Shown: one piece after another, positions 4,206 to 63,620 of the stretch | Position numbering within the stretch: the stretch's first letter is position 1 | Layout: every line of letters starts with the position of its first letter | Virus record (IMG/VR): IMGVR_UViG_3300021388_000002 | Direction: 5' to 3' (one strand) | Origin: a virus | Lineage: Duplodnaviria > Heunggongvirae > Uroviricota > Caudoviricetes | Length of the DNA stretch: 64,000 nt | Translations under genes and position numbers: made by a program | Notes under the pieces: model-generated | Told to the model about the DNA's origin: nothing | What the model saw: only the letters and a program-made list of their open reading frames with translations | The model's database searches: none

Positions 4206-4636
4206 GACAGCACGGCGCCTTCCACCTGAGCCCGCAGGTACGCGCGGTAGGCCGCCATCAGCGGGCGGGAATGGTAGAAGCCGCCCCTGGGCAGCGCGTG
4301 ATAGCCCTTCGGCGCCGCGAACTCCTCGGTCGTATCAGCCCAGGCCCGCATCCGCTCGTTGTAGCGCCGGGTGTCCGGGTCGTTGGCGACGTCTTTCTTG
4401 CCGGGCACGGTACCGGGGGTCACAACGTCGCCCGGCTCATGGCCAGCGGTGAAGTACCGGGCCAGCACCGCGCGCAGTTCCTTGGCGTGCTCGTGGGTCA
4501 GGTCCAGGGCGGTGGGCTTGAGGTTGCTCAGGTCGGTGCCCAGCGCGAGGTACAGCGTGACCTCAGCGTCCACCCGGCGCCCGTCCTCCTCGTGAAAGCA
4601 GAGGTCGTCGCTGGAGATGAAGCGCAGTTCCTGCAT
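4202..4636 (-). CDS. lsr2: Lsr2-like nucleoid-associated protein
   Basis: N-terminal dimerisation-like segment (VDAEVTLYLALGTDLSNLKPTALDLTHEHAKELRAVL) and C-terminal AT-hook-like region (LPRGGFYHSRPLMAAY); CAGGAGAC SD. Confidence 0.65.
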   Translation of the reverse strand: MQELRFISSDDLCFHEEDGRRVDAEVTLYLALGTDLSNLKPTALDLTHEHAKELRAVLARYFTAGHEPGDVVTPGTVPGKKDVANDPDTRRYNERMRAWADTTEEFAAPKGYHALPRGGFYHSRPLMAAYRAYLRAQVEGAVLS

Positions 4637-8564: not shown

Positions 8565-8794
8565 GCGGGGCACTGGCGCGGGAGCAGCGGCGCAGGCTCA
8601 CCACTCATGTCACCCAGGCACTGGCGGTGCTCATGGTAATCGCCACGCTCATCTCCCTGGCCACCGGGAGCAGCCCGTTCCGGGTATTCGCGTGGGTGGG
8701 CGGCGGCGGGGCAGCGGGCTGGGCGGCGGTCTGGGCCGCGGGCAGACGGCAGCGGGCGGAAATGTCAGACCCCGGTGATAGGCCTGAGTCATGA
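8561..8794 (+). CDS. small membrane protein
   Basis: hydrophobic segment LAVLMVIATLISLATG; ATGA coupling. Confidence 0.4.
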   Translation: MSGALAREQRRRLTTHVTQALAVLMVIATLISLATGSSPFRVFAWVGGGGAAGWAAVWAAGRRQRAEMSDPGDRPES

Positions 8795-18007: not shown

Positions 18008-21000
18008 GTGACCGGCGCCCCCGCGGTCTACGCCGCTGCCGTCGATGCCTACCTGGCGGCCGGCTGGACGTGCGTCATCCCGGTGCCGCCGGAGGCCAAG
18101 TTCCCGCCGCCCGCCGGGTTCACCGGGGCCTCTGGCCGGGACACCGGCCCGGCCGACGTCGCCCGCTGGGTGATGGCCACGCCCGGGGCCTCGATCGCGC
18201 TGCGCCTGCCGGACGGCGTCATCGGCATCGACGTCGATGAGTACGCCAAGGGCGAGGCCGTCAAGCACGGCGCGGCCACGCTCGCGGCGAAGGTGGCGGA
18301 CTGGGGAGAGCTGCCGCCGACCTACAGCTCCACCGCGCGCGGCCCGGGCCAGCCCAGCCGGATCATGCTCTACCGGGTCCCGGCCGGGGTGCGGTTCGCC
18401 TCGGTGCTCGGCCCGGACGTGGAGATCATCCAGCGGCACCACCGCTACGCCGTGGTCGCGCCGTCGCCGCACCACGGGGCCGGGGCGCCGTATGCCTGGT
18501 ACGGCCCGGACGGGGTGGCGCTGGAGCACAAGATCCCGCGGCCGGAGGATCTGGCCGAGCTGCCGCCCGCCTGGGTGACCGGGCTGGCTGAGGGCGCCTC
18601 AGCGGCCGGGCCGGCCTCAGCGGGCCGGGAGGCGGCCGAGGCCCTGCTGGCCGTGATCGCGGACCAGGCCGGGGAGAGCGCCACCACATGCGTGTCCATG
18701 GACCGGGCCCGGCTGGCCGCCATCGGCGCGTGCACCGGGGCCGAGCGGGGCTCGCGCCACGACGCGATGACCGAGCACACCTACGAGGTCATCATGCTGG
18801 CCGCCGAGGGCCACCCGGGCTGCACCGCGGTGCTGGGCGAGCTGGCCGGGCTGTGGAATTCGCTCACGGCAGGGGAGGGCCGTGAGCACGAGTTCTGGGA
18901 GATGCTGACCACCGCGGCGGGCAAGGCGGTGACCAAGCTGGGCGGCCGGGCCGAGCCAGCCGGGTGGGACCCGTGCCTGATGATGAACGCGGTGCCGTAC
19001 GCCGCGCCGACGCCGGATGCCGGGGACGGCATGGCCCCGGACCCGGTGGAGCCGGCCCGGGTGTGGTCGCCGTTCGAGGTCATCGGCACCGAGGTGTTCG
19101 ACCCGGGCGCGGACATGGACGGGCTGCTGGCCCGCGCCGTGCTGCACCGGACCCGGCCGCTGATCCGCTACGCGGCCGACGCCGGCACCTGGATCGCGCG
19201 CGGGCCCATCCACTGGGAGGCCCGCAGCGGCGACCTGGGCAAGTGGGCGGTGGACCTGCTGAGCTGGCTGATGCGGCCCGGTGACCCGGCTGCGGACAAG
19301 GGCACCCCGGCCGAGACCGACGCCCGGCGGCGGGCCCGGTTCACCACCAACGCCAGCGCGAACGCGATCGCGGGCAAGATCAGTGCCCAGGTCGCGGCCG
19401 GGTACCACCCATCCACGGTGGAGCTGGGCGAGCTGGACGGCGAGCACGAGATCCTGTGGGCGGGCGGGCAGCCGTACGACATCCGGCTGAGCGCCGCGCA
19501 CCCGGAGCTGTCCCGGGTCCTGGACCTGGGCACGCCGCACCTGCACAGCGCCGGCGTGGTGCCCGAGACGCGCGAGACCCCGCTGTGGGACGCGTTCGTG
19601 GCCGCGGTCTGGCCCCAGCCGGGGCTGCGCGCCTGGGCCCTGCGAGTGCTGAGCGTGGCGTTCACCGGGTACTCGGACAAGGCGCTGCCCATCCTGCTGG
19701 GCGAGTCCAACACCGGCAAGACCCAGCTCCTGGTCCTGCTCATGTCCGTGCTCGGCAGCTACGCGCACGTGGCCGACGCCCGGCTGCTGGCGCCCGCCGA
19801 CCGCAGCCACGCCTCCATCGTGTACGCGCTGAAGGGCCGCCGGCTGAGCTTCATCGATGAGGCGCCCCGGACCGGGCAGCTGGCCACCGAGCGGCTGAAG
19901 CAGATCACGGGCGGCGCGGAGCTGACCGGCAACCAGATGGGCAAGAACCCGATCACGTTCATGCCCACGCACACGCTGATCCTGACCGCCAACCCCGAGC
20001 ACGAGCCGGTCCTGACCGATGCGGCCATCCGGTCCCGGGTGCGGCTGATCCCGTGCGACGGGAACCAGGCCGAGGTGGCGGCGGCGCGGGCCGCGATCGG
20101 CGCGCTGAGCGGGCCGGCCTGGCGGCGCGAGGCTCCCGGGGTGCTGGCAAAGATGCTGTCAGAAGCAGCCCAGTGGCTCGAACAGCCGCAGACCGCCAGC
20201 AACGCTGAGGCACCCGCCGAGGCAGCCATGGCAGCCGAGGAGGTCCGGGCCTCACAGGACCACGTGCTGGGCTGGCTCGCAGAGGAATGCGAGTCTTCCG
20301 AGCGGGGCACCAAGGGCCGCGAGCTTTACGTGGCGTTCACGGAGAGTTGCCGGCGGATGAACGTCCACCCGTCTGCGATCCCGAGTGAAACCCGGTGGGG
20401 CAGACGCCTCACCGAGCTTGGCTACCCTTCACGCCACACCAATCAGGGCAACATCCGGCAGCTCCGAATCCGGCCTCCGGTGCCGTTCACACCTGGCAGC
20501 TACAGCCCAGCCGCGCCGCACGGCGCTGCAGTCGTCCTGCAGCCCGGTCCAGGTGAAGGGTTGAGGCCTGAAAGTGAAGGGTTGGTGCATGGTTCTGAGG
20601 CCAGCTCTCAACCCTTCACTGAGGGGGAAACCGCAGGTCAAACTATTCACCCAACTATTCACGGTGAAGGGTTGAATAGTACACAGCCTTATATAACACA
20701 TGCGCGCACGCACACGCGCACGCACATGAACGGAGGTGCAAACGACCCTTCACCCCCTTCAACCGTTCACCTGACCCCCCCGCAGCCGGAAACCCCCCTG
20801 ATGCCGGAAGCCCCGGAGGCCGGCGCAGCGTCACCACCGGAGCGTGACGAGCCCGAGCCGGCGCAGCCCGCGAAGAAGGCCCGCAAGGCGCCCGCGAAGA
20901 AGCCGGAGCGGGTCCGGCCGGCTCCGGAGCTGGAGGGCCCGGTGCACCCGCTGCCGGTGATCGTGGCGCGGAACCCGGCGGGCGGTGCGCCCATCGTGGC

Positions 21001-23863
21001 GCCGTGCACGGTGGCCGAGGCAGCTCAGCTGGCCGGGGGCTACCTGGACGCGCTGTGCGTGGACGTGGAGCACTCGGGCTTCCCCATCGCCCACGCGGAT
21101 TACCGGCTGCGCCTGGTCCAGCTCGGCGGCGAGCACGTGGCCGCCGTGTTCGACCCGTCCGATGCGGCGCAGGCGGCTGCGATCGCGGACCTGCTCGGCC
21201 GGGCCCGCAAGCTGCACGCGCACTCGGCCGCGGCCGACCTGGTGCCGCTGGCCCATGCCGGGCTCGGTGACGCCGATGAGATGTGGGCGAAGATGGAGGA
21301 CTCGGTGCTGGTGACCAAGCTGGGCGATCCCAGCCTGGCCGGGTCGGACGAGAACGAGCTGAAGCGGCTGGCCGCCGGGCTGCTCGGGGACTACGCCGTC
21401 AGTCCCGCCGCGGAGAAGGCCAAGAACGAGCTGTTCAAAGACGGCCGGTGGCTGATCGAGACCAAGGCCATGACCCCGCGGGAGAAGTCCGGGTGGGCCA
21501 TGGTGAAGCCCGGGTGCGAGACGTTCGCCCGGTACGCCGGGTCCGACGTGCTGGACCTGGCCGCCGTGATCCGCACGCTGCCCCGGCCGGATGAGGCCAT
21601 CCTGGAGCGCGAGCGCACCTTCCAGGCCATGTGCGCCCGGGTCGCGCACACCGGGTTCCGGCTGCGCCCTGATCACATCCGGGCCAAGATCGCCGAGTTC
21701 GCCGGGCTCCGGGACGCCGCCCAGCGCCGGGTGCACGAGCTGTGCCCGGACATCATCAACCCGTCCAGCTCCCGGGAGGTCCCGGCCGCGCTGGCCGCCA
21801 TGGGCGTGCCGCTCGGGCTGACCAGGGAAGGCAACCCCTCGGCGTCCAAGGAAAACCTGGAGCTGCTGGCGAAGCAGAAGGATTACCCCCACGCGGAGCT
21901 GCTGGCCCAGATCCTTCAGTACCGGCACTGCGTGACCACGCTCGGGCTGCTGCTGGAGCCACTGAACGTGCTGTGCGAGCGGGGCGACGGACGGATGCGC
22001 CCGGTGGTCTACACGATCAACGCGGACACCGGGCGGACCAGCTGCGTGCGGCCAAACGGTCAGCAGTTCTCCCGGCAGGGCGGCATCCGGGCCTGCGTCG
22101 GCGCCGATCCCGGCATGATCGGCATCAGCGCCGACTTCTCCGGCGTGGAGATCCGGGTCGGGGCCGCGCTGAGCGGCGACATGGACCTGCTCGCCGCCGA
22201 GCTGTCCACCCGGTGCCAGGCGTGCGGGCAGGACCCGTGCGACATGACCGCCTGCGGGAAGAACCAGAAGGGGCTGCACTGGATGGCGGCCCGGATGGCA
22301 TTCGGCCCGGACGCGACCAAGGAAGGCCGCTACAACTCCAAGCGGATCATCTTCTGCGTGCCCGAGGACGGCACCGAGATCCTGACCCGGCGCGGCTGGC
22401 TGGCTCACGATCAGGTCCGGGCAGGCGATGAGACGCTGGGCCGGAATCCCGGAACCGGCTTGCTGGAGTGGACCCCAGTTACGGGTGTCCAGCACTTTGG
22501 TGAGGCTGAGCTGGTGCGGATCGCGAATAAGGATTCCGGCTGGGAGGCCGTGGTCACGCCTGGGCATCGCTGGGCGACTAGCAAGCGCCGTGATGGGGGC
22601 AGCCGCGGCCGGTATTTCGCTGAGGGGATGACTGAGACTCAGGATCTCAGCTGCGAGCACTCGCTGATCCTGGGTGCGCTCGCGGCAACGCCGGAGCAGC
22701 TGCCCATCACCCCGGCTGAGGCTGCGCTGATCGCCTGGGCCTATACGGACGGGCACGTGTTCCAGTCCCCGCTGACCGGGCGCACAAGCCAGGGCCGGGA
22801 TGGACGGCGCCGTAAGCTGCAGGTCAGTATCGCCCAGGCCAAGCCCGCTGGCGTTCACGCGCTGGAGAAGGTCCTGGCGGACTGCGGCGCTGATTTCGCA
22901 CGAGACGACAAGCCGCTGGATGGCAAGGACAAGCGCACGATGCCATCCTCGGTCTGGCGGCTCCGGACTGAATACGCCCGGGAACTGTGGGGCCGGGCTG
23001 GCCTGCTTGCCGTTGCGGGCAAGAACCTGCCCGGATTCGCGCTGGAGCAGTTTGTCCTGCGGCTGGGCACGGAACAGCGCGGCGCGTTCTTTCAGGCCTG
23101 CATGGATGCCGAAGGTTACCGGGATAGCAGGACAGGAGCCCCGCGCATCTCCCAGAATGCGGGGCCAGTCCTGGACGCTATCAAGCTGGCTGCAACCCTG
23201 GAGGGCTACTACGTCCGGGAACACGTGACGCGGTTTGCGCTCGGGACTGCCCCGCATAGCGTGCTCGTGCTGTCGCGCCCGCGGGTGGGCGGGACCAGGC
23301 TGCGTAAGGAACCGGCTGGGTCAGCGCCGGTCTGGTGCGTGACAACAGGGCACGGCACCTGGCTGATGCGCCAGAACGGCCGGATCATGCTTACCGGCAA
23401 CTCCAAGATGTTCGGCGGCGGCCCGAAGTCCGGTGCCGCCCAGGTCGGCCTGCCGCTGGCGGCGGGCATCGCGGTGCACAACGCGTTCGAGCAGATTGCC
23501 CCGGGCTTCGCCGAGTGGGACCGGCAGATGCGGGCCTACCTGGAGGCAGGCAACCGCGGGTTCACTGCCTACTCGGGCCGGACCATCTGGCTGCCTCGCG
23601 GCCGGAGCCACGCGGCCGGGAACTACGCCATCCAGGGCACCGCCCGGGAGATCCTGGTGGACGGCGTGCTGAAGTGGGGTCAGACCCGCTGGGGCGCCTA
23701 TCCGCTGCTGCCGATCCACGATGAAGTTCTCACGTTCGTGCCCGTGGCCGAGGCCGCCGAGGCGCTGGAGACGCTGAAGGCCTGCATGGCCAACGAGCTG
23801 TACGGCGTGCCGATCGTGGCCGCCGCCGACGAGCCGTTCGAGTTCTGGCCGGACAGCTCATGA
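18008..23863 (+). CDS. giant replication fusion protein: primase-polymerase + P4/D5-type SF3 helicase + 3'-5' exonuclease + family-A DNA polymerase (intein-interrupted)
   Basis: IGIDVDEY prim-pol; LLGESNTGKTQ Walker A; CVDVEHSGF exo I; ADFSGVEIRV motif A; PIHDEVL motif C; continuous 1951-codon frame. Confidence 0.75.
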   Translation: MTGAPAVYAAAVDAYLAAGWTCVIPVPPEAKFPPPAGFTGASGRDTGPADVARWVMATPGASIALRLPDGVIGIDVDEYAKGEAVKHGAATLAAKVADWGELPPTYSSTARGPGQPSRIMLYRVPAGVRFASVLGPDVEIIQRHHRYAVVAPSPHHGAGAPYAWYGPDGVALEHKIPRPEDLAELPPAWVTGLAEGASAAGPASAGREAAEALLAVIADQAGESATTCVSMDRARLAAIGACTGAERGSRHDAMTEHTYEVIMLAAEGHPGCTAVLGELAGLWNSLTAGEGREHEFWEMLTTAAGKAVTKLGGRAEPAGWDPCLMMNAVPYAAPTPDAGDGMAPDPVEPARVWSPFEVIGTEVFDPGADMDGLLARAVLHRTRPLIRYAADAGTWIARGPIHWEARSGDLGKWAVDLLSWLMRPGDPAADKGTPAETDARRRARFTTNASANAIAGKISAQVAAGYHPSTVELGELDGEHEILWAGGQPYDIRLSAAHPELSRVLDLGTPHLHSAGVVPETRETPLWDAFVAAVWPQPGLRAWALRVLSVAFTGYSDKALPILLGESNTGKTQLLVLLMSVLGSYAHVADARLLAPADRSHASIVYALKGRRLSFIDEAPRTGQLATERLKQITGGAELTGNQMGKNPITFMPTHTLILTANPEHEPVLTDAAIRSRVRLIPCDGNQAEVAAARAAIGALSGPAWRREAPGVLAKMLSEAAQWLEQPQTASNAEAPAEAAMAAEEVRASQDHVLGWLAEECESSERGTKGRELYVAFTESCRRMNVHPSAIPSETRWGRRLTELGYPSRHTNQGNIRQLRIRPPVPFTPGSYSPAAPHGAAVVLQPGPGEGLRPESEGLVHGSEASSQPFTEGETAGQTIHPTIHGEGLNSTQPYITHARTHTRTHMNGGANDPSPPSTVHLTPPQPETPLMPEAPEAGAASPPERDEPEPAQPAKKARKAPAKKPERVRPAPELEGPVHPLPVIVARNPAGGAPIVAPCTVAEAAQLAGGYLDALCVDVEHSGFPIAHADYRLRLVQLGGEHVAAVFDPSDAAQAAAIADLLGRARKLHAHSAAADLVPLAHAGLGDADEMWAKMEDSVLVTKLGDPSLAGSDENELKRLAAGLLGDYAVSPAAEKAKNELFKDGRWLIETKAMTPREKSGWAMVKPGCETFARYAGSDVLDLAAVIRTLPRPDEAILERERTFQAMCARVAHTGFRLRPDHIRAKIAEFAGLRDAAQRRVHELCPDIINPSSSREVPAALAAMGVPLGLTREGNPSASKENLELLAKQKDYPHAELLAQILQYRHCVTTLGLLLEPLNVLCERGDGRMRPVVYTINADTGRTSCVRPNGQQFSRQGGIRACVGADPGMIGISADFSGVEIRVGAALSGDMDLLAAELSTRCQACGQDPCDMTACGKNQKGLHWMAARMAFGPDATKEGRYNSKRIIFCVPEDGTEILTRRGWLAHDQVRAGDETLGRNPGTGLLEWTPVTGVQHFGEAELVRIANKDSGWEAVVTPGHRWATSKRRDGGSRGRYFAEGMTETQDLSCEHSLILGALAATPEQLPITPAEAALIAWAYTDGHVFQSPLTGRTSQGRDGRRRKLQVSIAQAKPAGVHALEKVLADCGADFARDDKPLDGKDKRTMPSSVWRLRTEYARELWGRAGLLAVAGKNLPGFALEQFVLRLGTEQRGAFFQACMDAEGYRDSRTGAPRISQNAGPVLDAIKLAATLEGYYVREHVTRFALGTAPHSVLVLSRPRVGGTRLRKEPAGSAPVWCVTTGHGTWLMRQNGRIMLTGNSKMFGGGPKSGAAQVGLPLAAGIAVHNAFEQIAPGFAEWDRQMRAYLEAGNRGFTAYSGRTIWLPRGRSHAAGNYAIQGTAREILVDGVLKWGQTRWGAYPLLPIHDEVLTFVPVAEAAEALETLKACMANELYGVPIVAAADEPFEFWPDSS
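20540..20780. promoter_or_regulatory. candidate replication origin-like island inside the replication gene linker
   Basis: local GC drop; GTGAAGGGTTG x3 direct, CAACCCTTCAC inverted, CAACTATTCAC x2; 32-nt alternating Pu/Py tract 20697-20728; TTATATAAC. Confidence 0.35.
22355..23401 (+). mobile_element. intein (349 aa) inside polymerase domain, with homing endonuclease-like middle
   Basis: CVPEDGTEILTRRG start after ...KRIIF; ends ...IMLTGN followed by Ser; in frame. Confidence 0.65.
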
Positions 23864-38145: not shown

Positions 38146-38628
38146 TCAGCCGGTGTACGGCGGCTCGCTCGTGCACTCGCCCGCGTGGTGGGTGCCGCAG
38201 CCGCGCGGCGGGATGCTGGCCGGGTCGGTTGTGCGGACGGTGCGCAGTGCCCGCTGGCGGTCATCCTCGTCAGCGAACGCATCTGACAGGGCGACCGCGA
38301 GCACAGCCTGGGCCAGTGCGCGGCGGGTTGGCCCGTACTCGGCTACGGCGGCCAGCACGATGCCCAGCGCGAGGTCATCCGCTGCCTGGAGGTCGGCCGC
38401 GTACTGGGTCACCGCGCGCCAGGCGTCTTCCCGGCTGGGCTCGGTGCCGCCATCCAGGACCGTGCCGTCCTCGCGGCGGCGGATAACCCACTTTGTCTGG
38501 CCGTCCAGCCCGGCGGCGGTGAATGTGCTGGCGTAGCCCTGCGTCCGCAGCCACGCCTGAGCCGCGATGGCCGCCTCGCTGAGCTGGCGGTCCGGGTCTG
38601 GTGGCGCGGCGGTTACCGGGGTGCTCAT
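38146..38628 (-). CDS. hypothetical protein
   Basis: GAGGAGGCGGCCCG ATG. Confidence 0.5.
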   Translation of the reverse strand: MSTPVTAAPPDPDRQLSEAAIAAQAWLRTQGYASTFTAAGLDGQTKWVIRRREDGTVLDGGTEPSREDAWRAVTQYAADLQAADDLALGIVLAAVAEYGPTRRALAQAVLAVALSDAFADEDDRQRALRTVRTTDPASIPPRGCGTHHAGECTSEPPYTG

Positions 38629-38954
38629 CGGGCCGCCTCCTCGCGCAGCTCCCGGGCCAGGTCGCGCAGATTGGCGGTGGTGCGGGTTACCCGGCGCACG
38701 ATCGGGTCGCTGTCGTTCAGGCATTCCTCGATCGCCGTTATCCGGTCCGCCAGGGCCAGCAGGGAGCAGTCCCGGCTGAGTTCTGGCCGGGAGCCGTACC
38801 GCAGCCAGTTCTCCATGTGCTGCTCCAGCGTGACGCCCTCGGGCTTGGGGCCGATGCCTGCCTGGTTCATCCAGCGCAGCCCGAGCGTGCCCTCGCGCAG
38901 CATCGTGCTGAACGCCAGCGCCAGCCGTGTGGTCATGTCCTGCTGTGCGGTCAT
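38625..38954 (-). CDS. hypothetical protein
   Basis: GAACAGGAGGAACCCCG ATG. Confidence 0.5.
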   Translation of the reverse strand: MTAQQDMTTRLALAFSTMLREGTLGLRWMNQAGIGPKPEGVTLEQHMENWLRYGSRPELSRDCSLLALADRITAIEECLNDSDPIVRRVTRTTANLRDLARELREEAAR

Positions 38955-39041
38955 CGGGGTTCCTCCTGTTCGTTAGGACGCGCTGGCCCGCACCGCGTGA
39001 TGCGGGCCAGCGCGAATGTGATCAGACGGTGACGGGCTCGG

Positions 39042-40451
39042 CTAGCGCGGTGCCGTGGCCGCCATCATCGCGACCGTGGGCAGGCTGGACCCGTGCGCCA
39101 GGGGCGCTGCCGGGAGGGTGACCGGCTCGGCCGTGGCCGGTGCCAGGCTGTCCAGCTCGGCCGGCACGGTGCCCGGCTTGAACTGGGCCAGCACGTCCTC
39201 GCCCGTGACCGCGCCGCTGGCGACGGCAGCGCTCATCCGGGCGGCGTGCACCACGACCAGCGGGTGCTTGCCGATCAGGACCGGCGGGCTGGCGTTCTCA
39301 GCCATCGGGTCGCAGCTGCTGCCCGGGGTGGCTGGGCAGTCCGGGCAGGGCGCTGCCAGCAGCGTGCCGGTCAGCTCTGCCCGCTCGGCCGCGTCCTGCT
39401 CCTGCTCCGTCCCGGTGGTGAACTGGCCGTGCCGCGGGCGCTGGCGGATGCCGTTCCGCTTGCGCGGGCGCTGCGGGATGGGCTCCGCGGCCGGCAGCGC
39501 TGGCGGTGCCGCGTCCGTCTCGCCCGGCAGCCGCAGGCCACCCGTGGACGCCTGGTCATCGGCGCGCAGCCGCACCGTAGCCGAGGTCACCCAGATGGGC
39601 GGCGCGTCCGGCAGCGGCTCGCCGGTCTCCGGGTCGGTGTCCGGCTGGTGCCACCCGATCGGCTCGATGGTGTACGCGAACGAGTCCGGCAGCGGCCCGC
39701 ACTTGACCTTCTCCGCGATCACCGTGGCCGACCGGCTGCCGTCCGTGCTCTCCAGGTCTGGCTCGATCCCGAACACGAAGTCCGAGGAAGCGAACAGCCG
39801 GGAGCCGGGCAGGCGCTGCGGCTCGTTGCCGCGCCCGCCGTTCGGGTGCGCGATCGCGATTACCAGGCAGTCCAGCTGGGCCGACAGCCACTTCATCCCG
39901 AGCATGAACCGGTTGGCGCTGGTGTCGTTAGCCAGCGACAGGCCGCCGAAGTCCGCCGCGCTGTCCAGGATGACCAGCTCCAGGTCCGGCAGCTGGCCCA
40001 TCTCGGTCGCCGCCCGGCGCAGCGCCCGCGTCGGCTCCATCTGCGGGCTGACCGGCACCGCGAACGCCTCCGTCATGAACTTCAGCCGCACGTCGGTGTA
40101 GGGCGGCTGGGCCGCCAGCCACGCATCGGCCGCCGCCTGGCCGTCCCGGCGGGCGATCTCGGCCGCCCGCGCCATCCGGTCATGCTGCTCGCGGATCAGC
40201 CGGGCCTGCTTGCGGACTCCCGCGTCGTACAGGCCCTCACCGAGGCAGTACGCGACCATGCCCCGGATGGTCGCCCGGCCGAGGAACGGGGTGCCGTTGG
40301 CGACCGCCAGGCCCAGTTCCTGGCCGATCACCAGGGACTTGCCGTAGTACGACGGCCCGTAGACGAACCCCACGCCCACCCGGGGGAACAGCCCCTCGAC
40401 CAGGAAGTCCGGCGGGGTGATGTCCAGGTCGTCAGCGTTGATCAGAGGCAT
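39042..40451 (-). CDS. AAA_25-type RecA-like ATPase (RepA/DnaB-like fold)
   Basis: GFVYGPSYYGKS Walker A; VILDSAADF Walker B-like. Confidence 0.65.
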   Translation of the reverse strand: MPLINADDLDITPPDFLVEGLFPRVGVGFVYGPSYYGKSLVIGQELGLAVANGTPFLGRATIRGMVAYCLGEGLYDAGVRKQARLIREQHDRMARAAEIARRDGQAAADAWLAAQPPYTDVRLKFMTEAFAVPVSPQMEPTRALRRAATEMGQLPDLELVILDSAADFGGLSLANDTSANRFMLGMKWLSAQLDCLVIAIAHPNGGRGNEPQRLPGSRLFASSDFVFGIEPDLESTDGSRSATVIAEKVKCGPLPDSFAYTIEPIGWHQPDTDPETGEPLPDAPPIWVTSATVRLRADDQASTGGLRLPGETDAAPPALPAAEPIPQRPRKRNGIRQRPRHGQFTTGTEQEQDAAERAELTGTLLAAPCPDCPATPGSSCDPMAENASPPVLIGKHPLVVVHAARMSAAVASGAVTGEDVLAQFKPGTVPAELDSLAPATAEPVTLPAAPLAHGSSLPTVAMMAATAPR

Positions 40452-52707: not shown

Positions 52708-52786
52708 AATTCAGCCTGGCTCATCAGCGCGCGGCGGCAAACCCGCGCGGACGGGCACGTGGCCCGTTTCGCCTGGTCCGGGGACG

Positions 52787-54440: not shown

Positions 54441-55244
54441 TTACGCGGGCACCGCGATGCGGGCCGGCTTGCGCGCGTGACGCGGGCCGTTGCTGGGCTT
54501 GGCGGTGCTGGGCTTGGCGGTGCTGGGCTTGACGGCGCGCGCCGGCATCGGCGAAACACCGTTCTTACGGCAGTCGGGGCAGTCGGTGCGCGGCTCACTG
54601 GCCGGGTGCGCAGGCACGCCGCGAACCGCGTGCGTGGTGACCTTGACCGGTTCCGGTGAGGCGGCCGGCGTGGCGGACTCCAGTTTGGCTAGCCGAGCGC
54701 GGGCCGCCTTCAGCTCGCCCTCTAGGCGCAGCACGTCCGCGCGTGCCTGGTCAACTTCGGACAGGGCCGGCGCGCTGGCCTGGCCGTCCGTGTCCGTGTC
54801 CGTGCCGGCGCCGGCAGCGTCGCTCTTGCGCGACTGGACAAGCTTCTGGGCTTCCCGGACCGTCCACACCTGAGAGGTAAGCAGGCTGGCCCGGTCATCC
54901 TGCTTAACGAAAACCTGGTGAATGGTGTAACTGTTGTCCGCCGACCGCTCGTCTTCGGCGTACGCGGCGGCGATCGTGCGGTAGTTGATCAGCGTCTTGT
55001 ATGCGATGCCGATGTCGCCGGCGTAGCGCTGCATTGTCTTGTCCCCGTAGCCGACCGTCACGGCGCCGGCGAGGTCGCCTAGCGTCCACGCGGCTTTTCC
55101 GGCGTTCAGCGCGGCGCGCTTGCCGGCCGTCACTGCCTTGGCGTACTCACGGTCGGTCGCGAGGTCTGGCGTGGCCGGCTTGCTGGGCTTGGCGTTGCTG
55201 GGCTTGGCGTTGCTGGGCTTGGCGTTGCTGGGCTTGCTGGTCAT
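54441..55244 (-). CDS. first gene of leftward small-gene block; KPSNA / KPSTA terminal repeats
   Basis: N-terminal SNAKPSNAKPSNAKPSK and C-terminal KPSTAKPSTAKPSN; followed by strong hairpin. Confidence 0.55.
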   Translation of the reverse strand: MTSKPSNAKPSNAKPSNAKPSKPATPDLATDREYAKAVTAGKRAALNAGKAAWTLGDLAGAVTVGYGDKTMQRYAGDIGIAYKTLINYRTIAAAYAEDERSADNSYTIHQVFVKQDDRASLLTSQVWTVREAQKLVQSRKSDAAGAGTDTDTDGQASAPALSEVDQARADVLRLEGELKAARARLAKLESATPAASPEPVKVTTHAVRGVPAHPASEPRTDCPDCRKNGVSPMPARAVKPSTAKPSTAKPSNGPRHARKPARIAVPA

Positions 55245-56212
55245 GATGACTCCCGGTTGGCTCGGTTCGGTTGCTGTCCCTGTCTGGCCGTACGGCCAAG
55301 GCCGGCCAAGGTGCGTTGTGCGGTGCGTACGTAAGCGAACCGCCGGCAACCCTTACGGGCGCCCGTTCGCGGAAGTAGCGCGGTGCGCGTGGCACCTTGG
55401 CCGACCCAAGGTGTACGGATGCGGATTGAATGGCGGACCAGGTCGGCGGACCGATGATCTAGGCGGCCGGCGCATGACGTGCGCGAGATGTGGCCGTTAC
55501 GCCGATGCCTGGTCTAGGTGGCAGTGATCCGCGCGGATAGTTGCTAGGCATCCCGCGAATCGTGGGGAACCGTGTTCGCTAAGCGTCCCGGTTCCGCTAG
55601 GGCAGACTCACCCCAAAGTTGCCGCGTAGTTCGGTGCGTAGGGTCGCCGGACCGTATCCCCGGTTTACCGGAGCCTGCTGTCCGATTCTGGCGACGTATG
55701 CGCGGCGCGTTGCCTCCCGGCTATGCGCGGCGCGTCCTCTAATCGCTCGCCTACCCGCTTGCGCGGCGTGTCCTCAGCTATGGAGTTCTCAAGGTGCCCG
55801 CCGGCCGTGTCCCGTGCCATTCGGTGGGGGCCGGCGTCCCGTTCGGTATTTGGTTGAGACGCCAGTATGCGCAGAGTCCGTAAGAGTATGCAAGCTCAAT
55901 ATTCCCGACGGCCGGACTATTGCATGATCATCAGGCTCTGACTTGCGACGATAACAAAAAATGTGACGTGCATCACATTGTGGCGCGTCCGTCTGTCACG
56001 GTGCCCCGTGGCCGGGCCGGCCAGTGCTGGCCAGGCATGCCCTGGGGACCGCTCTTGACCAGCCAAAACGCCTAGCGCGGCTAGGGTGGCCTTATTGCCT
56101 AGGGTTGGGGGGTAAACCCGTTAGCGTGGCTCTCAGAGCCGTTTAGGGCCATGTCCGGTTTGCCCGTTTCTCTGGTCTGGGCCTGGGCTGGCCCGACGCG
56201 ATATATCGCGCT
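55245..56212. promoter_or_regulatory. non-coding, lower-GC, CTAG-rich region upstream of leftward gene block; contains 7-bp inverted repeat AATGTGA-(6 nt)-TCACATT at 55960-55979
   Basis: stops in all frames; many CTAG tetramers; A-tract GATAACAAAAAATGTGAC. Confidence 0.4.
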
Positions 56213-56522
56213 ACCTGGTGAGCCGTGCCGTGCCCGTGGCCACCTGGTGAGCCGTGCCCGTGGCCACCTGGTGAGCCGTGCCCGTGGCCACCTGGTGAGC
56301 CGTGCCCGTGGCCACCTGGTGAGCCGTGCCCGTGGTCGCCCGGCTGGCCGTGCCCGTGGTCGCCCGGCTGGCCGTGGCCGTGGTCGCCCGGCTGGCCGTG
56401 GCCGTGGTCGCCCGGCTGGCCGTGGCCGTGCCCGGTATGCGGGAACACACGCGGCGTGCCCGTGGTTGTCACCTGGTGAGCCGCGCTCGGTGGCTACCTG
56501 GTCAGCCGGCCGCCTGGTGAGC
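56213..56522. repeat. tandem 24-bp repeat array (ACCTGGTGAGCCGTGCCCGTGGCC x5 then TCGCCCGGCTGGCCGTGGCCGTGG x4, degenerate copies to 56522)
   Basis: direct tandem copies read from sequence; all six frames open (His/Gly- or Pro-rich translations). Confidence 0.7.
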
Positions 56523-56527
56523 ATGGG

Positions 56528-56730
56528 TCGTTAGCAAGGGCAACTGTTAGCCGTGCTAAGGATTGTCGTTAGCAAGGGCAACTGTTAGCCGCGCTAAGGA
56601 CTGTCGTTAGCAAGGGCAACGGTTAGCCGGGCTAAGGATTGTCGTTAGCAAGGGCAACGGTTAGCCGGGCTAAGGATTGTCGTTAGCAAGGGCAACGGTT
56701 AGCCGGGCTAAGGATTGTCGTTAGCAAGAC
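56528..56730. repeat. tandem 38-bp iteron-like array x5.3 (TCGTTAGCAAGGGCAACGGTTAGCCGGGCTAAGGATTG), each with internal palindrome TTAGCCGGGCTAA
   Basis: unit starts at 56528, 56566, 56604, 56642, 56680, 56718. Confidence 0.75.
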
Positions 56731-57075
56731 TAATGACCTGTTGCAGAAATTCGAATGCCTGTTCGTCGTACAGGTGTTCGATTTTTTTGTGCGCATTAGG
56801 GGGGATGCCTGCCACACGCGATTCTCCCCGCGCGAAAAATACCCGCGCACGTGAAGCTCGAACAAAATCGCGAAATCTGTTCTGGTGTGATGGTGACCGG
56901 ACGTGTGACCCAGATCGCCGCCCGTCCCGCGATCGCAACGCGCTGACCTGCAAGGATCACGCGGGTGGTCATACCGTCGCGCCCCGCGGGTCACACCAGG
57001 ATCACAGCCAGGATCACGCCCGCCGATCACACCGATCACACCCTGGACCCTGTGTCCTAGCCCTACAATGGGTGG
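56731..57075. promoter_or_regulatory. AT-richer region with clustered GGATCAC/GGTCAC repeats and TACAAT -10-like box 6 nt before GTG of PadR gene (leaderless-type promoter)
   Basis: GATCACGC, GGTCACACC, GGATCACAGCC, GGATCACGCCC, GATCACACC x2 between 56940 and 57045; CCCTACAATGGGTGG GTG. Confidence 0.35.
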
Positions 57076-57363
57076 GTGCGGAAAACCCTGAACCTGGCTG
57101 TGCTCCTGGGCGCTTTGCTGGCCGAGCCCGCAGCGCAGTATGGTCTGCAGCTGATGGCGGTAACGGGCCTGTGCTCCGGCACGCTGTACCCGCTCCTGGC
57201 CCGGCTGGAAGCCGCGGGACTGGTGGCCGCCGAGCAGGAGCGGGGAGCCCCGCGGGAACTGGGCCGCCCGCTCCGGCGCTACTACCTGCTCACGCCCGCC
57301 GGGGCGCGGTTTGCCTGCGAGATGCTGGCCGCGCTGCCTGAGCTGCCCGTGCGGCCGGGCTGA
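57076..57363 (+). CDS. PadR-family transcriptional regulator (GTG start)
   Basis: GTLYPLLARLEAAGLV winged-helix signature. Confidence 0.6.
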   Translation: MRKTLNLAVLLGALLAEPAAQYGLQLMAVTGLCSGTLYPLLARLEAAGLVAAEQERGAPRELGRPLRRYYLLTPAGARFACEMLAALPELPVRPG

Positions 57364-58485: not shown

Positions 58486-59012
58486 TCCAGCACTGATGCG
58501 CATCTGATGTTAGGCTCGGGCCGTTACCCCTTCCAGCAGGACGCACAGGAGGCACCGCATGGAGTACGGTTCAAGCGCCGCGTCGGTGGAGAGCCGCGAG
58601 ATCGAGCCGGGCGGCAGCAGCTCGCTCTGGTTCAACCCGCGGCCGGTCATCAGCGTGCACCAGACCGAGTCCATCTAGCCGGCTCGCGCGGGACAGCCCG
58701 CGGCCTCGCGGAACAGGCCGCGGGCTGTCCCGGTAACCGGGACGGCCGGTGGCGGGCCGGGGAATGGGGCTGCTCGCTCGGCCTGTCCCGCTACTGGGAC
58801 CGGCACCGCTGCTCATCACACGACCGGGGAAGGAACCCGTGAACCTCAGCTTCAACCCCAACGGGGCCAGCGACGCCAGCGCCAGCCACCAGGCGGCCGA
58901 CCGGCACTACCCGGGCGCGAACCTGCTGGCCCGGCTGCTGACCGCCAGCGGCGAGGAGACCAGCCCGCTCTGACCCTGGCCGGCTGGCCGTTTAATTAGG
59001 TAGGCTAAGCAG

Positions 59013-59495
59013 ATGGACTCTCACGAGCTGGCCGCCGCGCTGACGCTGGCCATCACCCGGCTGGACCGTGATATCCACATCCGCCAGGCCCCGGGCGTGA
59101 CCGTGGGCGAGCTGGCGATCCTGACCCACCTGGACATGCTCGGCCCGTCCACCCCGGCCGACCTGACCCGGCTGGAGCGGATCGCCAGCCCGTCCATGAC
59201 CCGGTATCTCAAGCGGCTGCTGTACCGCCAGCTGATCGATATCGTGCCCAACCCGGCCGACAGGCGCAGCGCACTGGCCACGATCACCGATGCCGGGCGG
59301 GTGCAGGCCGCGCAGGCGCGGGCCGGGGCGTGGCTTCCTCCTCAGCTCGCTGCGCTGCTGCCGCAGGACCAGGCTGTGCTGGAAGCGGCGCTGCCTATCC
59401 TGCAGCGGCTGTGCGCCGAGCCCGACTGCACCGACGATGGCGCTGGCCCGGCTCCGGGGCCATCACCGGAACCGGGCCAGCCAGAAGCACCGTAA
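59013..59495 (+). CDS. MarR-family transcriptional regulator
   Basis: VTVGELAILTHLDMLGPSTPADLTRLERIASPSMTRYLKRL. Confidence 0.6.
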   Translation: MDSHELAAALTLAITRLDRDIHIRQAPGVTVGELAILTHLDMLGPSTPADLTRLERIASPSMTRYLKRLLYRQLIDIVPNPADRRSALATITDAGRVQAAQARAGAWLPPQLAALLPQDQAVLEAALPILQRLCAEPDCTDDGAGPAPGPSPEPGQPEAP

Positions 59496-60248: not shown

Positions 60249-60453
60249 GATTCCACGCTAGCACTGGAATGATGCCTAAATGATTCAGCGTTCTAGCTAG
60301 TTGACAGTGCGTCGCGGAGGTTACGCTATCGATCCGGCTATGTCTTTAGCGACGCTAACGGACTGCGGTGGTACTCTAACCGCAGACGGGGGTAGGGCCC
60401 GCTGACACGAGCCGTACCCCCTGACCGACCCCGTTGCGAGGAACGAGGACCGG
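60249..60453. promoter_or_regulatory. divergent low-GC intergenic region with CTAGCTAG and ATTCCA-(9 nt)-TGGAAT inverted repeat
   Basis: read from sequence; candidate operator for adjacent XRE gene. Confidence 0.35.
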
Positions 60454-61602: not shown

Positions 61603-63571
61603 GACCGCTCCCGCGCGCACGGGCCGGGTGGGCTGGCGGCGCCTGCTGCTGCTGATCGCCGTGCCCGTCGTGCTCGCGATCGTGCTGCTGCATGGGCTCG
61701 GCGGCCGGACGATGCTGCTCGTGGGCCTCATCGGGGCCGCCGTGCTCGTCTTCGGGTTCATCATCTGGCGGCTTCCGCACCTGCGCCGGCATTTCGCCCG
61801 GCCCGGCGGCCCGAGGCAGCCCCGGCAGCCGCGGGTGCGCTCGCAGATGTGGCACCGCCGGGTGCGCTCGCAGATGTGGCACCGCCGGGTGCGCTCGCCC
61901 GGCCGCCCGCCTGGCGCTGGCTGGAAGCCCGGTGCGGGCCGCCGTCACTTCGGTGGCGGGTCCCGGCGCGCGGGCGGGTTTGCGCACCGTTCTCCCGGTT
62001 CCCTGCTTCACCGCCGCCGGGCCTCCGGCGGGCAGGGAGCGGGGGCTGGCAGCCGGCGCCGCTCCGGATCGGTCCCCGGGGGCCGGCGCCGGGGCGGTTC
62101 CGGCACATCTGGTTCCTTCCGGCGCGCCTCTGGGCATGGACGGCGCTCTGGCGGGAGCTTGCGCGGTTCCCGGCGGTCTGGGCACAGTTCCGGGTCCTCC
62201 CGCCGCGGTTCCGGGCATTTCGGGGGGACCCGGCGCCACCGCGGTCTGGCCACCGCGGGCCGCCGCCGGCCCTCCACCAGCACGGCGCGGCGACCCGGGG
62301 GCCGTACGTCCGGGTCGCCGCGCCGCCGCAGCCTGTTCCACCCGTTCGGCGGGGGGCACCGCAGCAGGATCGCCTCCGGCCGGCGCACCGGCACGGGCAG
62401 TACCGCTCGCCGGCGCAGCCTGCTGCACCCGTTCGGCGGGGGCCGGCGCAGCGGGTCCGGCGGGCCGGGCCGCCGCAGTGGCACGGGCAGCACGCCGCGC
62501 CGCCGCAGCTTGTTCCACCCGTTCGGCGGCGGGCGCCGTCGCAGTGGCACCGGCACGGGCAGCACGCCGCGCCGCCGCAGCTTGTTTCACCCGTTCGGCG
62601 GGGCCCGCCGCCGTGGCAGTGGCGGTACCTCCACCGGGACCGGTTCTGGCACGGCCCCGCGGCGCTGGCGTCACCCGGTGCGCGCCATCACCGGCCGCCA
62701 TCGGCCGTTCCGGGCCCTGGCCGGGCACCGGGCATTCCGGCCGTGGACGTGGGGCAACCCGGCCGCCCGCAAGAACAGCCGGGCCGCGCGCAAGGCCAGC
62801 CGGATGCGGCGGCGGAACTGGGCCCGGCGGGTAGCTGGCAACCCGTACCGCAAGCGCAGCCACGGCTGGGCCTTCTGGCGGAACTGGACCCGGCCGCTGC
62901 ACCCGGGCCGGGCCGGCCGCCGGGCCGCGGTACGCAGGCTGAGCTTTGCCCAGCAGATGAAGCGGCGCTGGCGGGCCCGGCACGGTGGCCTGCCCGGCCT
63001 GGGCGGGCGGCGCAAGCCGCTGGGCGTCCGGTTCGCCGAGTGGCGCCGCCGTGCGCCCCGCCCGCTGTACGGCCGGTTTGGCCGCCTGAGCCGCAACGGG
63101 CTGGCCCGCAAGCTGGACCGGCAGCGGATGCGGCGGCATCTGCGCCGTGGCGGGGGACCGGCACCGCTGAGCCCCAACCAGCGCCCGTCCCGGACGCAGC
63201 GCCAGCCGGGCCGCAGTACCCCAGTCAGCCCGAACCCCGCCACCACCGGGCCCGTGTCAGGAAGCGGGCCCGGGACGTACCGAACAGGAGATGGGAAGAT
63301 GGATGTAGGCGCGATTTCCGATGAGATCGAGGCCGCCGGCAATCAGGAGTTCCGCGACCCCGATCACGTGCACGAGACGATGCGGGACCTGCACCTGGTC
63401 CTGGAAGCGACTCAGGGCGCGCTGCAGCGTATGAGCGAGCGGGTTCGTGAGACCGGCCTGCGGGAATCTTACGCAGACCAGATCGCCGAGACCTCGGGCA
63501 AGCTCGGCGGCCTGGCCGAGGAGCTGTCCTCGATCATCGGCGGCGGCGTGATGGACAACCACGGCAGCTGA
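61562..63571 (+). CDS. membrane-anchored Arg/Ser/Gly-rich tandem-repeat protein (RRRSLFHPFGGG x5) with globular C-terminus; frame assignment tentative
   Basis: N-terminal TM LLLLIAVPVVLAIVLL; five near-identical ~38-aa repeats; all six frames open in repeat zone. Confidence 0.4.
   Translation: MAMAMTMTEPPATETAPARTGRVGWRRLLLLIAVPVVLAIVLLHGLGGRTMLLVGLIGAAVLVFGFIIWRLPHLRRHFARPGGPRQPRQPRVRSQMWHRRVRSQMWHRRVRSPGRPPGAGWKPGAGRRHFGGGSRRAGGFAHRSPGSLLHRRRASGGQGAGAGSRRRSGSVPGGRRRGGSGTSGSFRRASGHGRRSGGSLRGSRRSGHSSGSSRRGSGHFGGTRRHRGLATAGRRRPSTSTARRPGGRTSGSPRRRSLFHPFGGGHRSRIASGRRTGTGSTARRRSLLHPFGGGRRSGSGGPGRRSGTGSTPRRRSLFHPFGGGRRRSGTGTGSTPRRRSLFHPFGGARRRGSGGTSTGTGSGTAPRRWRHPVRAITGRHRPFRALAGHRAFRPWTWGNPAARKNSRAARKASRMRRRNWARRVAGNPYRKRSHGWAFWRNWTRPLHPGRAGRRAAVRRLSFAQQMKRRWRARHGGLPGLGGRRKPLGVRFAEWRRRAPRPLYGRFGRLSRNGLARKLDRQRMRRHLRRGGGPAPLSPNQRPSRTQRQPGRSTPVSPNPATTGPVSGSGPGTYRTGDGKMDVGAISDEIEAAGNQEFRDPDHVHETMRDLHLVLEATQGALQRMSERVRETGLRESYADQIAETSGKLGGLAEELSSIIGGGVMDNHGS
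62290..62640. repeat. ~114-bp tandem DNA repeats x4 inside the repeat-protein gene
   Basis: GCCGCCGCAGC(C/T)TGTTCCACCCGTTCGGCGG... recurring. Confidence 0.6.
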
Positions 63572-63572
63572 C

Positions 63573-63620
63573 CAGGAGCAGGACCAGGAGCAGGACCAGG
63601 AGCAGGACCAGGAGCAGGAG
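63573..63620. repeat. 12-bp tandem repeat ACCAGGAGCAGG x4 (SD-like) in intergenic region upstream of GTG at 63631
   Basis: read directly from sequence. Confidence 0.7.

Follow-up and report, generated by a model that had tools for sequence, protein, structure and literature searches.

A gene-free region of a large uncultured actinobacterial phage as a candidate divergent early control hub

The window analysed here, a stretch of 64,000 nucleotides from IMG/VR virus record IMGVR_UViG_3300021388_000002, contains a gene-free region of 1.8 kb (positions 55245-57075) from which the genes on either side diverge. The element is a large uncultured high-GC phage of Actinobacteria with a genome of about 164.5 kb. 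The region is not a single-function site. With confidence about evenly balanced against doubt, we read it as a divergent early control hub, in which an array of 38-bp units would form a KorB-like operator cluster for the ParB-fold protein encoded next to it (p267), and which further comprises an iteron-like array of 24-bp repeats, a terminator and a leader RNA. A previous annotation of the bare sequence (the original prediction) had proposed an origin, a partition or centromere-like site or a major regulatory switch, and had seen in the strand switch the control centre of the element. The proposal of a regulatory switch was borne out: the layout recurs in four relatives, palindromes lie at promoters, and a protein of the ParB/KorB fold is encoded alongside.

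The region is bounded by an ATG at position 55244, the start of the leftward operon, and by the GTG at 57076 of a rightward PadR-family gene (57076-57363, plus strand; Pfam, 2e-09). None of the open reading frames (ORFs) in 55245-57075 showed the strong bias towards G and C at third codon positions (GC3) that is the signature of this 70% GC genome, and the region was rightly predicted to be non-coding. The GC content of the whole window was 70.4%, and its lowest-GC stretch of 150 bp (GC 0.487) fell at 56641-56790. Among the non-coding tandem repeats of the 64 kb, the 24-bp and 38-bp arrays were the strongest.

A close homologue of p267 (54% identity) was found on a 3.1-kb contig (L003), and the blocks conserved between this contig and the window were used as DNA patterns; these and later patterns recovered L004 (a 210-kb viral contig), L033 (109 kb), L118 and L423 (45 kb). 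L118 and the start of L033 overlap in 90 identical bases, beyond which L118 extends on the other side. Together with the window, these contigs make up a comparison set of five related genomes from different samples, the relatives being classed as viral in IMG/VR. In all relatives a p382 homologue and a gene with a RyR domain lie on one side (accompanied by PadR in L004), about 2 kb of non-coding DNA in the centre and the p267 homologue opposite the p382 side. This layout is kept in L004, in L033 and L118 together, in L423 and partly in L003, despite flanking p267 proteins that are only 33-54% identical. A comparison with related elements had been proposed with the original prediction, and it found both the arrays and the palindromes conserved. 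A tblastn search with p267 against isolated phages gave no match, and searches of viral contigs with p267 and its alignments found no locus. The close p267 homologues that were looked up lie on contigs ending short of the upstream region. Scans of metagenome and genome contigs with hairpin patterns produced a flood of fortuitous matches in AT-rich genomes; only L118 and L051, which is the same contig as L033, were real.

The palindrome cluster and its ParB/KorB-fold neighbour

The 38-bp array occupies 56527-56733, with 5.3 copies at 56527-56728 (96% matches) according to Tandem Repeats Finder (TRF). Each unit carries one perfect palindrome TTAGC-N3-GCTAA and a weaker site, TTAGCAAGGGCAA; the five perfect palindromes start at 56547, 56585, 56623, 56661 and 56699, and six weaker sites alternate with them. 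The array and the palindrome in every unit were correctly predicted, but the central triplet is not always CGG as had been claimed, reading CGT, CGC and then three times GGG. Five TTAGC-N3-GCTAA palindromes were also present in L004, at spacings of 21 and 35 bp, and in L033, where the spacers are non-repeated. The conserved object is therefore the palindrome and not the 38-bp unit. At the equivalent place L423 has five copies of TCGTG-N-CACGA instead (L423-type sequence, TCGTGGCACGA); the palindrome sequence of the window taken as the candidate p267 target is TTAGCCGGGCTAA.

Perfect or one-mismatch copies of TTAGC-N3-GCTAA were confined to the array and to positions 58996 and 60346, and the other 55 kb of the window contained none. 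Palindromes with at most two mismatches numbered 18 against 6.0 expected, a count reached by 0 of 100 shuffles. The outlying copy at 58996-59008 (TTAGGTAGGCTAA, one mismatch) overlaps a TAGGCT box 6 nt before the ATG of a MarR gene at 59013. The perfect copy at 60346-60358 (TTAGCGACGCTAA) lies between the divergent XRE and p382 genes, with a promoter-like pair TTGACA...TACGCT about 20 nt upstream of it. One to three additional copies were found near rightward promoters in L004, L118 and L423. From its anatomy, the 38-bp array can be read as an operator cluster or a centromere-like one. The MarR gene itself appears leaderless like the PadR gene (58996-59015; TAGGCT, 6 nt, ATG), with its -10-like box inside the one-mismatch palindrome.

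The candidate binder of the palindromes is p267 (54441-55244, minus strand), the first gene product of the leftward operon, whose start is located 1.3 kb from the five perfect palindromes. The low-complexity KPSNA N-terminus of the protein is followed by a helix-turn-helix (HTH) domain at residues 28-146, which an acidic linker joins to a coiled coil; an H..H..C..C motif comes next, and the tail is basic. Its family comprises 948 cluster representatives and has no Pfam model; neither ParBc nor any other Pfam family matched p267. The AlphaFold model reached a mean predicted local distance difference test score (pLDDT) of 83, with values above 90 over residues 28-146, and the top 26 Foldseek matches were exclusively DNA-binding domains of ParB, Spo0J, Noc, KorB and SopB. 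As modelled, p267 carries a ParB/KorB-type DNA-binding fold. The N-terminal domain is also weakly similar (29-31% identity, E 4e-6) to a 'DUF6192 family protein' of giant linear Streptomyces plasmids; a gene with this annotation is located on NZ_CP109267.1 at 38576-39331, and in one case it lies two genes from a MobF relaxase.

Of the p267 homologues, the one in L423 is closest to the protein of the window, the DNA-binding domains being 51% identical, but L423 has a different palindrome. The predicted recognition helix (residues 82-94) reads D..RK in L423 and N..RT in all three genomes with TTAGC palindromes, two of which are only 35-36% identical to the window in the p267 DNA-binding domain. 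The apparent specificity swap between recognition helix and palindrome is a correlation across four genomes and not proof, and the pairs N..RT with TTAGC-N3-GCTAA and D..RK with TCGTG-N-CACGA would, if confirmed, constitute a natural specificity swap and a directly testable recognition code. PadR, MarR and XRE were disfavoured as palindrome binders because genomes with the palindromes do not all have these genes next to the region: it adjoins no PadR gene in L118 and L423, and neither MarR nor XRE in L004 and L118.

The operator of KorB (OB consensus) is a 13-bp palindrome, TTTAGCGGCTAAA, with a TTAGC half-site (PMC5577506). The cluster described here resembles the KorB/OB system of the IncP plasmid RK2 in its 13-bp palindromes with TTAGC half-sites and in the presence of copies at several promoters and elsewhere. 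It differs in its longer central spacer (3 nt as against 1), in that five copies are clustered in one array, in that p267 has a coiled coil and an HHCC motif and lacks the N-terminal ParB/CTPase domain, and in its host element, a phage of Actinobacteria for which no IncC/ParA or KorA partner was found. By analogy with KorB, the five palindromes would act as a high-density operator cluster for p267 as a dimeric ParB/KorB-type HTH protein. p267 could also occupy the lone palindromes of the MarR promoter and the XRE/p382 intergenic region and thereby set the level of early rightward transcription, like KorB from its OB operators, and the cluster could work by nucleation or by titration. The anatomy of the region, its conservation, the protein fold and the covariation of the RNA were shown; the assignment of proteins to sites, and every regulatory effect, we infer. 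ParB/KorB-style operator control has to our knowledge so far been described chiefly in plasmids, with a small number of prophage-plasmids. Should p267 bind these sites, this type of control would extend to large actinobacterial phages, in a form without the CTPase clamp domain.

Leader RNA, terminator and promoter elements

The left part of the region (55245-56212) had been described as a CTAG-rich spacer. The tetramers are present, and their number, 7, is 11-fold over the 0.62 predicted from the density in the whole window, but only about twofold over the 3.1 predicted from the local base composition; the excess is largely a property of non-coding DNA. The description had missed a structured RNA in the spacer, and two of the seven CTAGs (55544 and 55597) sit within its conserved motifs. 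Judged by covariation and by the folds of the five genomes, the 'CTAG-rich spacer' is the structured leader RNA of the leftward operon. Its core of about 85 nt (55532-55613, minus strand throughout) consists of the three hairpins H0 (55600-55613), H1 (55566-55595), with an invariant tip CGC-(G/U)UA-GCG, and H2 (55532-55557), in which the CGCG/CGCG base is invariant, the inner stem covaries and the loop C(C)UAGCAA(C) is conserved. The core is common to all five genomes, and each sequence alone folded into the same three hairpins at minimum free energy.

In the outer stem of H1 all 34 cells of the alignment paired, and compensatory double changes were seen at seven of seven pairs, with five different stems in the five genomes. 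Over all variable pairs, 76 of 84 cells paired in the hand-made structural alignment, compared with 50.9 ± 3.5 after shuffling, which permuted the pairing partners; 0 of 2000 shuffles reached 76. The alignment contained seven G.U cells and one A.C cell, an excess which indicates that the RNA strand is that of the leftward operon. The folding z-score of the single sequence was modest (-1.7). Rfam covariance models gave no match within 55100-57200 at E-values up to 1, and the three-hairpin motif is unique in the window. The hairpins form a candidate new RNA family with clear covariation in front of a 60-gene operon.

The length of the leader to the p267 start is 600-700 nt. Phage leader RNAs that modify RNA polymerase include the boxB of the lambda nut sites and the put sites of HK022. 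The hairpins share with them stem-loops with conserved loops, freely covarying stems and a place in the leader of a very long early operon; in contrast, neither sequence nor Rfam similarity was found and no N-like protein was identified. Transcription of the leftward operon, of 24 kb and about 60 genes, would first traverse a leader of 350 nt or more that contains the three hairpins, and the position of the hairpins in front of the operon suggests that antitermination, processing or protein binding at the RNA level is probable. Just upstream of the p267 start the leader also holds a long imperfect inverted repeat with 27-nt arms (55288-55418, minus strand), and at the equivalent place L003 has a different, perfect hairpin of 16 bp. 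In L033 (470-2110) the motif TCTGACCTGCGCAAAC occurs at least four times between small ORFs of an expanded leader and looks like a repeated promoter or operator element. Within the leftward operon, an intergenic gap contains a type II hammerhead ribozyme (52710-52774, minus strand; Rfam RF02276, 48.8 bits against a gathering score of 37, E 5.7e-07), which could cleave the polycistronic early transcript.

The predicted inverted repeat AATGTGA-N6-TCACATT was found at 55960-55979. It contains a palindrome of the CRP/FNR-type consensus, TGTGA-N6-TCACA (55962-55977), and lies in an AT-rich island (55841-55990, GC 0.50). The palindrome is the sole match in the 64 kb, with 0.94 expected, and is thus alone no rarer than chance. 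Its position is conserved in four relatives, with perfect copies in L004 and L423 and TGTGA-N6-CCACA in L003 and L033, and the leftward operon, which would start in the AT-rich island, probably has its promoter zone here. A reading of the palindrome and its T-run as a terminator was rejected: L004 lacks the T-run, and the stem has only 5-7 AT-rich pairs. Two further blocks on the minus strand are conserved, namely GCGTTTTGGCTGGTCA at 56056-56071 (16 of 16 positions matching L004; two copies in L003) and ACCGGACATGGCCCTAAACGGCTCTGAG at 56132-56159 (25 of 28 positions matching L004). L004 carries one more array, of 4.8 perfect copies of 35 bp (4447-4614), located between the conserved blocks and the CRP-type site; its unit resembles the conserved block GACCAGCCAAAACGC, of which the window has one copy and L003 two.

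On the other side of the 38-bp array, a 12-bp hairpin followed by seven T residues (56751-56788, plus strand) constitutes a conserved intrinsic terminator. The hairpin is kept in L004, L118 and L423, and a run of six to seven T residues occurs in four genomes. Where the window and L004 have two T.G/G.T pairs, L118 has C-G and A-T. These changes leave the helix intact only as plus-strand RNA, which identifies a terminator for a rightward transcript. The arms are unusually conserved in sequence and hold two overlapping LexA-box-like sequences, TCGAAT-GCCT-GTTCGT and TCGTAC-AGGT-GTTCGA. The LexA motif of Streptomyces is tCGAAC-N4-GNNCGa (PMC9380542). The overlapping pair matches the LexA consensus with one and two mismatches, TCGTAC-AGGT-GTTCGA having one mismatch to TCGAAC-N4-GTTCGA, and the LexA-like box adjoining the T-run is kept in four genomes. 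Matches of this type numbered three in the window against 1.0 expected, and 11 of 100 shuffles reached three; the likeness to LexA boxes is regarded as a lead only.

The block GGGATGCCTGCC-CACG-G-TTCT (56775-56840) is conserved, with 83% of 66 nt identical in L004; L118 has the block as well, and L423 a variant form of it. It is followed upstream of the PadR promoter by half-sites GTGAYC (left) and GATCACA (right) about 9-13 bp apart (56887-57042, plus strand). 'Six or more' GATCAC repeats had been claimed, which is slightly generous: the repeats are present, with five exact copies, all on one strand, and a GGTCAC at 56989 as the sixth. A GATCACA/GTGAYC zone also occurs in L118 and L423, and L004 has 12-bp CGACAG repeats there; the short repeats at this place have a period near 12 bp. 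The PadR gene has a leaderless-type promoter and start on the plus strand (57064-57078), in which TACAAT (57064-57069) precedes the GTG by 6 nt, as predicted. The arrangement TACAAT-GGGGGT-GTG is identical in L004, and L118 has TACGAT-N6-ATG. The conserved terminator with its LexA-box-like sequence would insulate the palindrome cluster from the leaderless PadR promoter and the GATCACA-type repeats that precede it.

The direct-repeat array and the weighing of the readings

The 24-bp array (56207-56514, plus strand) was recovered by TRF and by a repeat finder and consists, as predicted, of two unit types, with degenerate copies in addition. TRF reported 8.5 copies at 56227-56430 (96% matches), and 11 copies extend over 56207-56514 when the degenerate ones are included. 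The type A unit holds the core GGCCACC. Arrays at the equivalent position in the relatives have periods of 13 (L004), 17 and 22 (L033) and 18 bp (L423), with RGCCACC in all of them. A coding reading of the repeats, as a His/Gly-rich or Thr/Ala-rich peptide, was rejected for want of a ribosome-binding site and a GC3 signal; the repeats are also judged non-coding because the periods of the relatives (13, 17, 22 and 35) are not multiples of three. A CRISPR-like array was rejected as well, there being no unique spacers. The array appears iteron-like and is a candidate site for a second protein, which would bind the RGCCACC direct repeats.

Several points weigh against a divergent early control hub with p267 at its centre. 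The comparison rests on only five related genomes, and for p267 as binder of the palindromes the grounds are its adjacent gene, its fold and a correlation seen in four of them. p267 lacks the N-terminal CTPase domain of ParB and KorB, which stimulates ParA and binds CTP in ParB, its residues 1-27 being of low complexity. The recognition helix varies at further positions among the three TTAGC genomes, and the spacer of the palindrome is 3 nt here against 1 nt in the KorB operator TTTAGCSGCTAAA. No transcript was assigned as the one ended by the rightward terminator; a consensus promoter scan of the region found no promoter-like site, and start sites were not located. Finally, the direct-repeat array has no candidate binder, which leaves room for an origin function of this array. 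For the phage lineage as a whole, we propose only tentatively that a truncated ParB/KorB DNA-binding-domain protein and a five-site cluster serve as a KorB-like hub for silencing or anchoring early genes, with a specificity co-evolving with two recognition-helix residues, and that an undescribed three-hairpin leader, maybe through processive antitermination or protein binding, controls the 24-kb early operon.

The RGCCACC repeats could alternatively be iterons for a phage initiator at a replication origin, with the AT-rich islands as unwinding elements and divergent transcription as an activating factor. Iteron-type origins are known from lambda ori, P1 oriR and the iteron plasmids, and share with the region direct-repeat arrays of 13-24 bp beside an AT-rich stretch. 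The 9-11 direct repeats with a core conserved in all relatives, the lowest-GC 150 bp of the window (56641-56790) adjoining the repeats, as an unwinding element would, the divergence of genes at this place and a phage that encodes its own primase-helicase-polymerase are all consistent with an origin. However, no Rep-type or origin-binding family was detected in the flanking genes with Pfam and PHROGs, and the replication genes are about 30 kb distant. The DnaA box TTGTCCACA is absent from the region at up to one mismatch, and the cumulative GC skew has no turning point here. Unlike in iteron origins, the repeat unit is not conserved outside its 7-nt core; periods of 13-24 bp fit no single helical phase, and the recurrence of the palindromes at promoters is better suited to operators. 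An origin, as put forward in the original prediction, thus found no specific support in a neighbouring Rep gene, DnaA boxes or a GC-skew inflection, and we consider it improbable.

A partition site of a phage-plasmid, with the 38-bp array as a sopC-like centromere through which the ParB-fold protein would ensure inheritance of an extrachromosomal prophage, is decidedly unlikely. The sopC centromere of the F plasmid, which is bound by SopB, consists of tandem 43-bp direct repeats, each with a short palindrome. The array has the same form, with tandem units of 38 bp that bear one palindrome each and adjoin a gene for a ParB/SopB/KorB-type DNA-binding fold, and no integrase was seen among the proteins scanned. 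To this extent the predicted centromere-like character stands. In contrast to F, the window contains no SopA-type ATPase; a ParA-type deviant Walker A motif was absent from the six-frame translation of these 64 kb of the genome of about 164.5 kb, p267 lacks the ParB N-terminal domain, and there are only 3-5 units. The relatives of this phage keep the palindromes and not the tandem unit, the palindromes of L033 not being tandem at all.

The second assembly and further features of the window

By exact-protein look-up, the flanking genes were placed on one megahit contig of 164,526 bp (ENA ERZ27313870, k141_439006), both ends of which fall inside type A 24-bp units. The window bridges these ends, and the map is therefore circular or circularly permuted. 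The ENA contig and the window differ by 8 substitutions in 23 kb, and the window is an independent assembly of a near-identical genome. Full type A units number at least five in the ENA contig and three in the window, the 38-bp unit has 3.3 and 5.3 copies, respectively, and a 15-bp KPSNA coding repeat in the first leftward gene (55180-55236) has one copy fewer in the ENA contig. Simple circularisation of the ENA contig was rejected as an explanation, both for these substitutions and for the unit counts, which are impossible from any terminal overlap. The repeats are real, and their copy numbers are variable or unreliable.

The contig ends could also be explained by a packaging or genome-end region, in which the repeats would be pac or cos sites or the boundary of a terminal repeat, and four assemblies do break at or beside the arrays (the ENA contig at both ends, L003, L033 and L118). 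This explanation is very improbable: the window, L004 and L423 each contain the region unbroken and in their interior, L118 overlaps the start of L033 and reads past it, no terminase gene lies nearby, and breaks are to be expected at tandem repeats longer than the assembler k-mer. As a practical warning, such arrays can dictate the contig ends and repeat counts of metagenomic phage genomes.

It had been anticipated that the repeats might prove to be variable-number artefacts of assembly, and the copy numbers indeed differ between the two assemblies at all three tandem repeats, with one contig beginning and ending within an array; but an artefact or a neutral variable-number tandem repeat without function is hardly credible, as the repeats occur in independent assemblies, arrays stand at the equivalent position in four divergent relatives from different samples, the cores RGCCACC and TTAGC-N3-GCTAA are shared while their surroundings have diverged, and L033 keeps five palindromes without tandem duplication.

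The genes of the window include an endolysin, a primase/helicase/PolA fusion of 1951 amino acids, an SNF2 helicase and an exonuclease. The identity of the polymerase to those of isolated actinophages does not exceed 29%, and neither the region nor 24 kb of the replication module had a DNA match in phage or plasmid collections. The fusion is encoded by a single ORF (18008-23863, plus strand) that joins a primase, a D5-type helicase and a family-A DNA polymerase. An exonuclease-like ORF (8791-11652, plus strand) encodes a LAGLIDADG domain, and its GC content dips locally at about 9-10 kb, suggesting an intein or an inserted homing endonuclease. ARAGORN reported a tRNA-Gly(GCC) at 39163-39255 (minus strand); the call falls inside an AAA_25/RepA-like ORF (39042-40451) and is probably spurious. 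Between two rightward ORFs, a short gap (63570-63619) holds a perfect tandem repeat of 4.2 copies of the 12-bp unit GACCAGGAGCAG.

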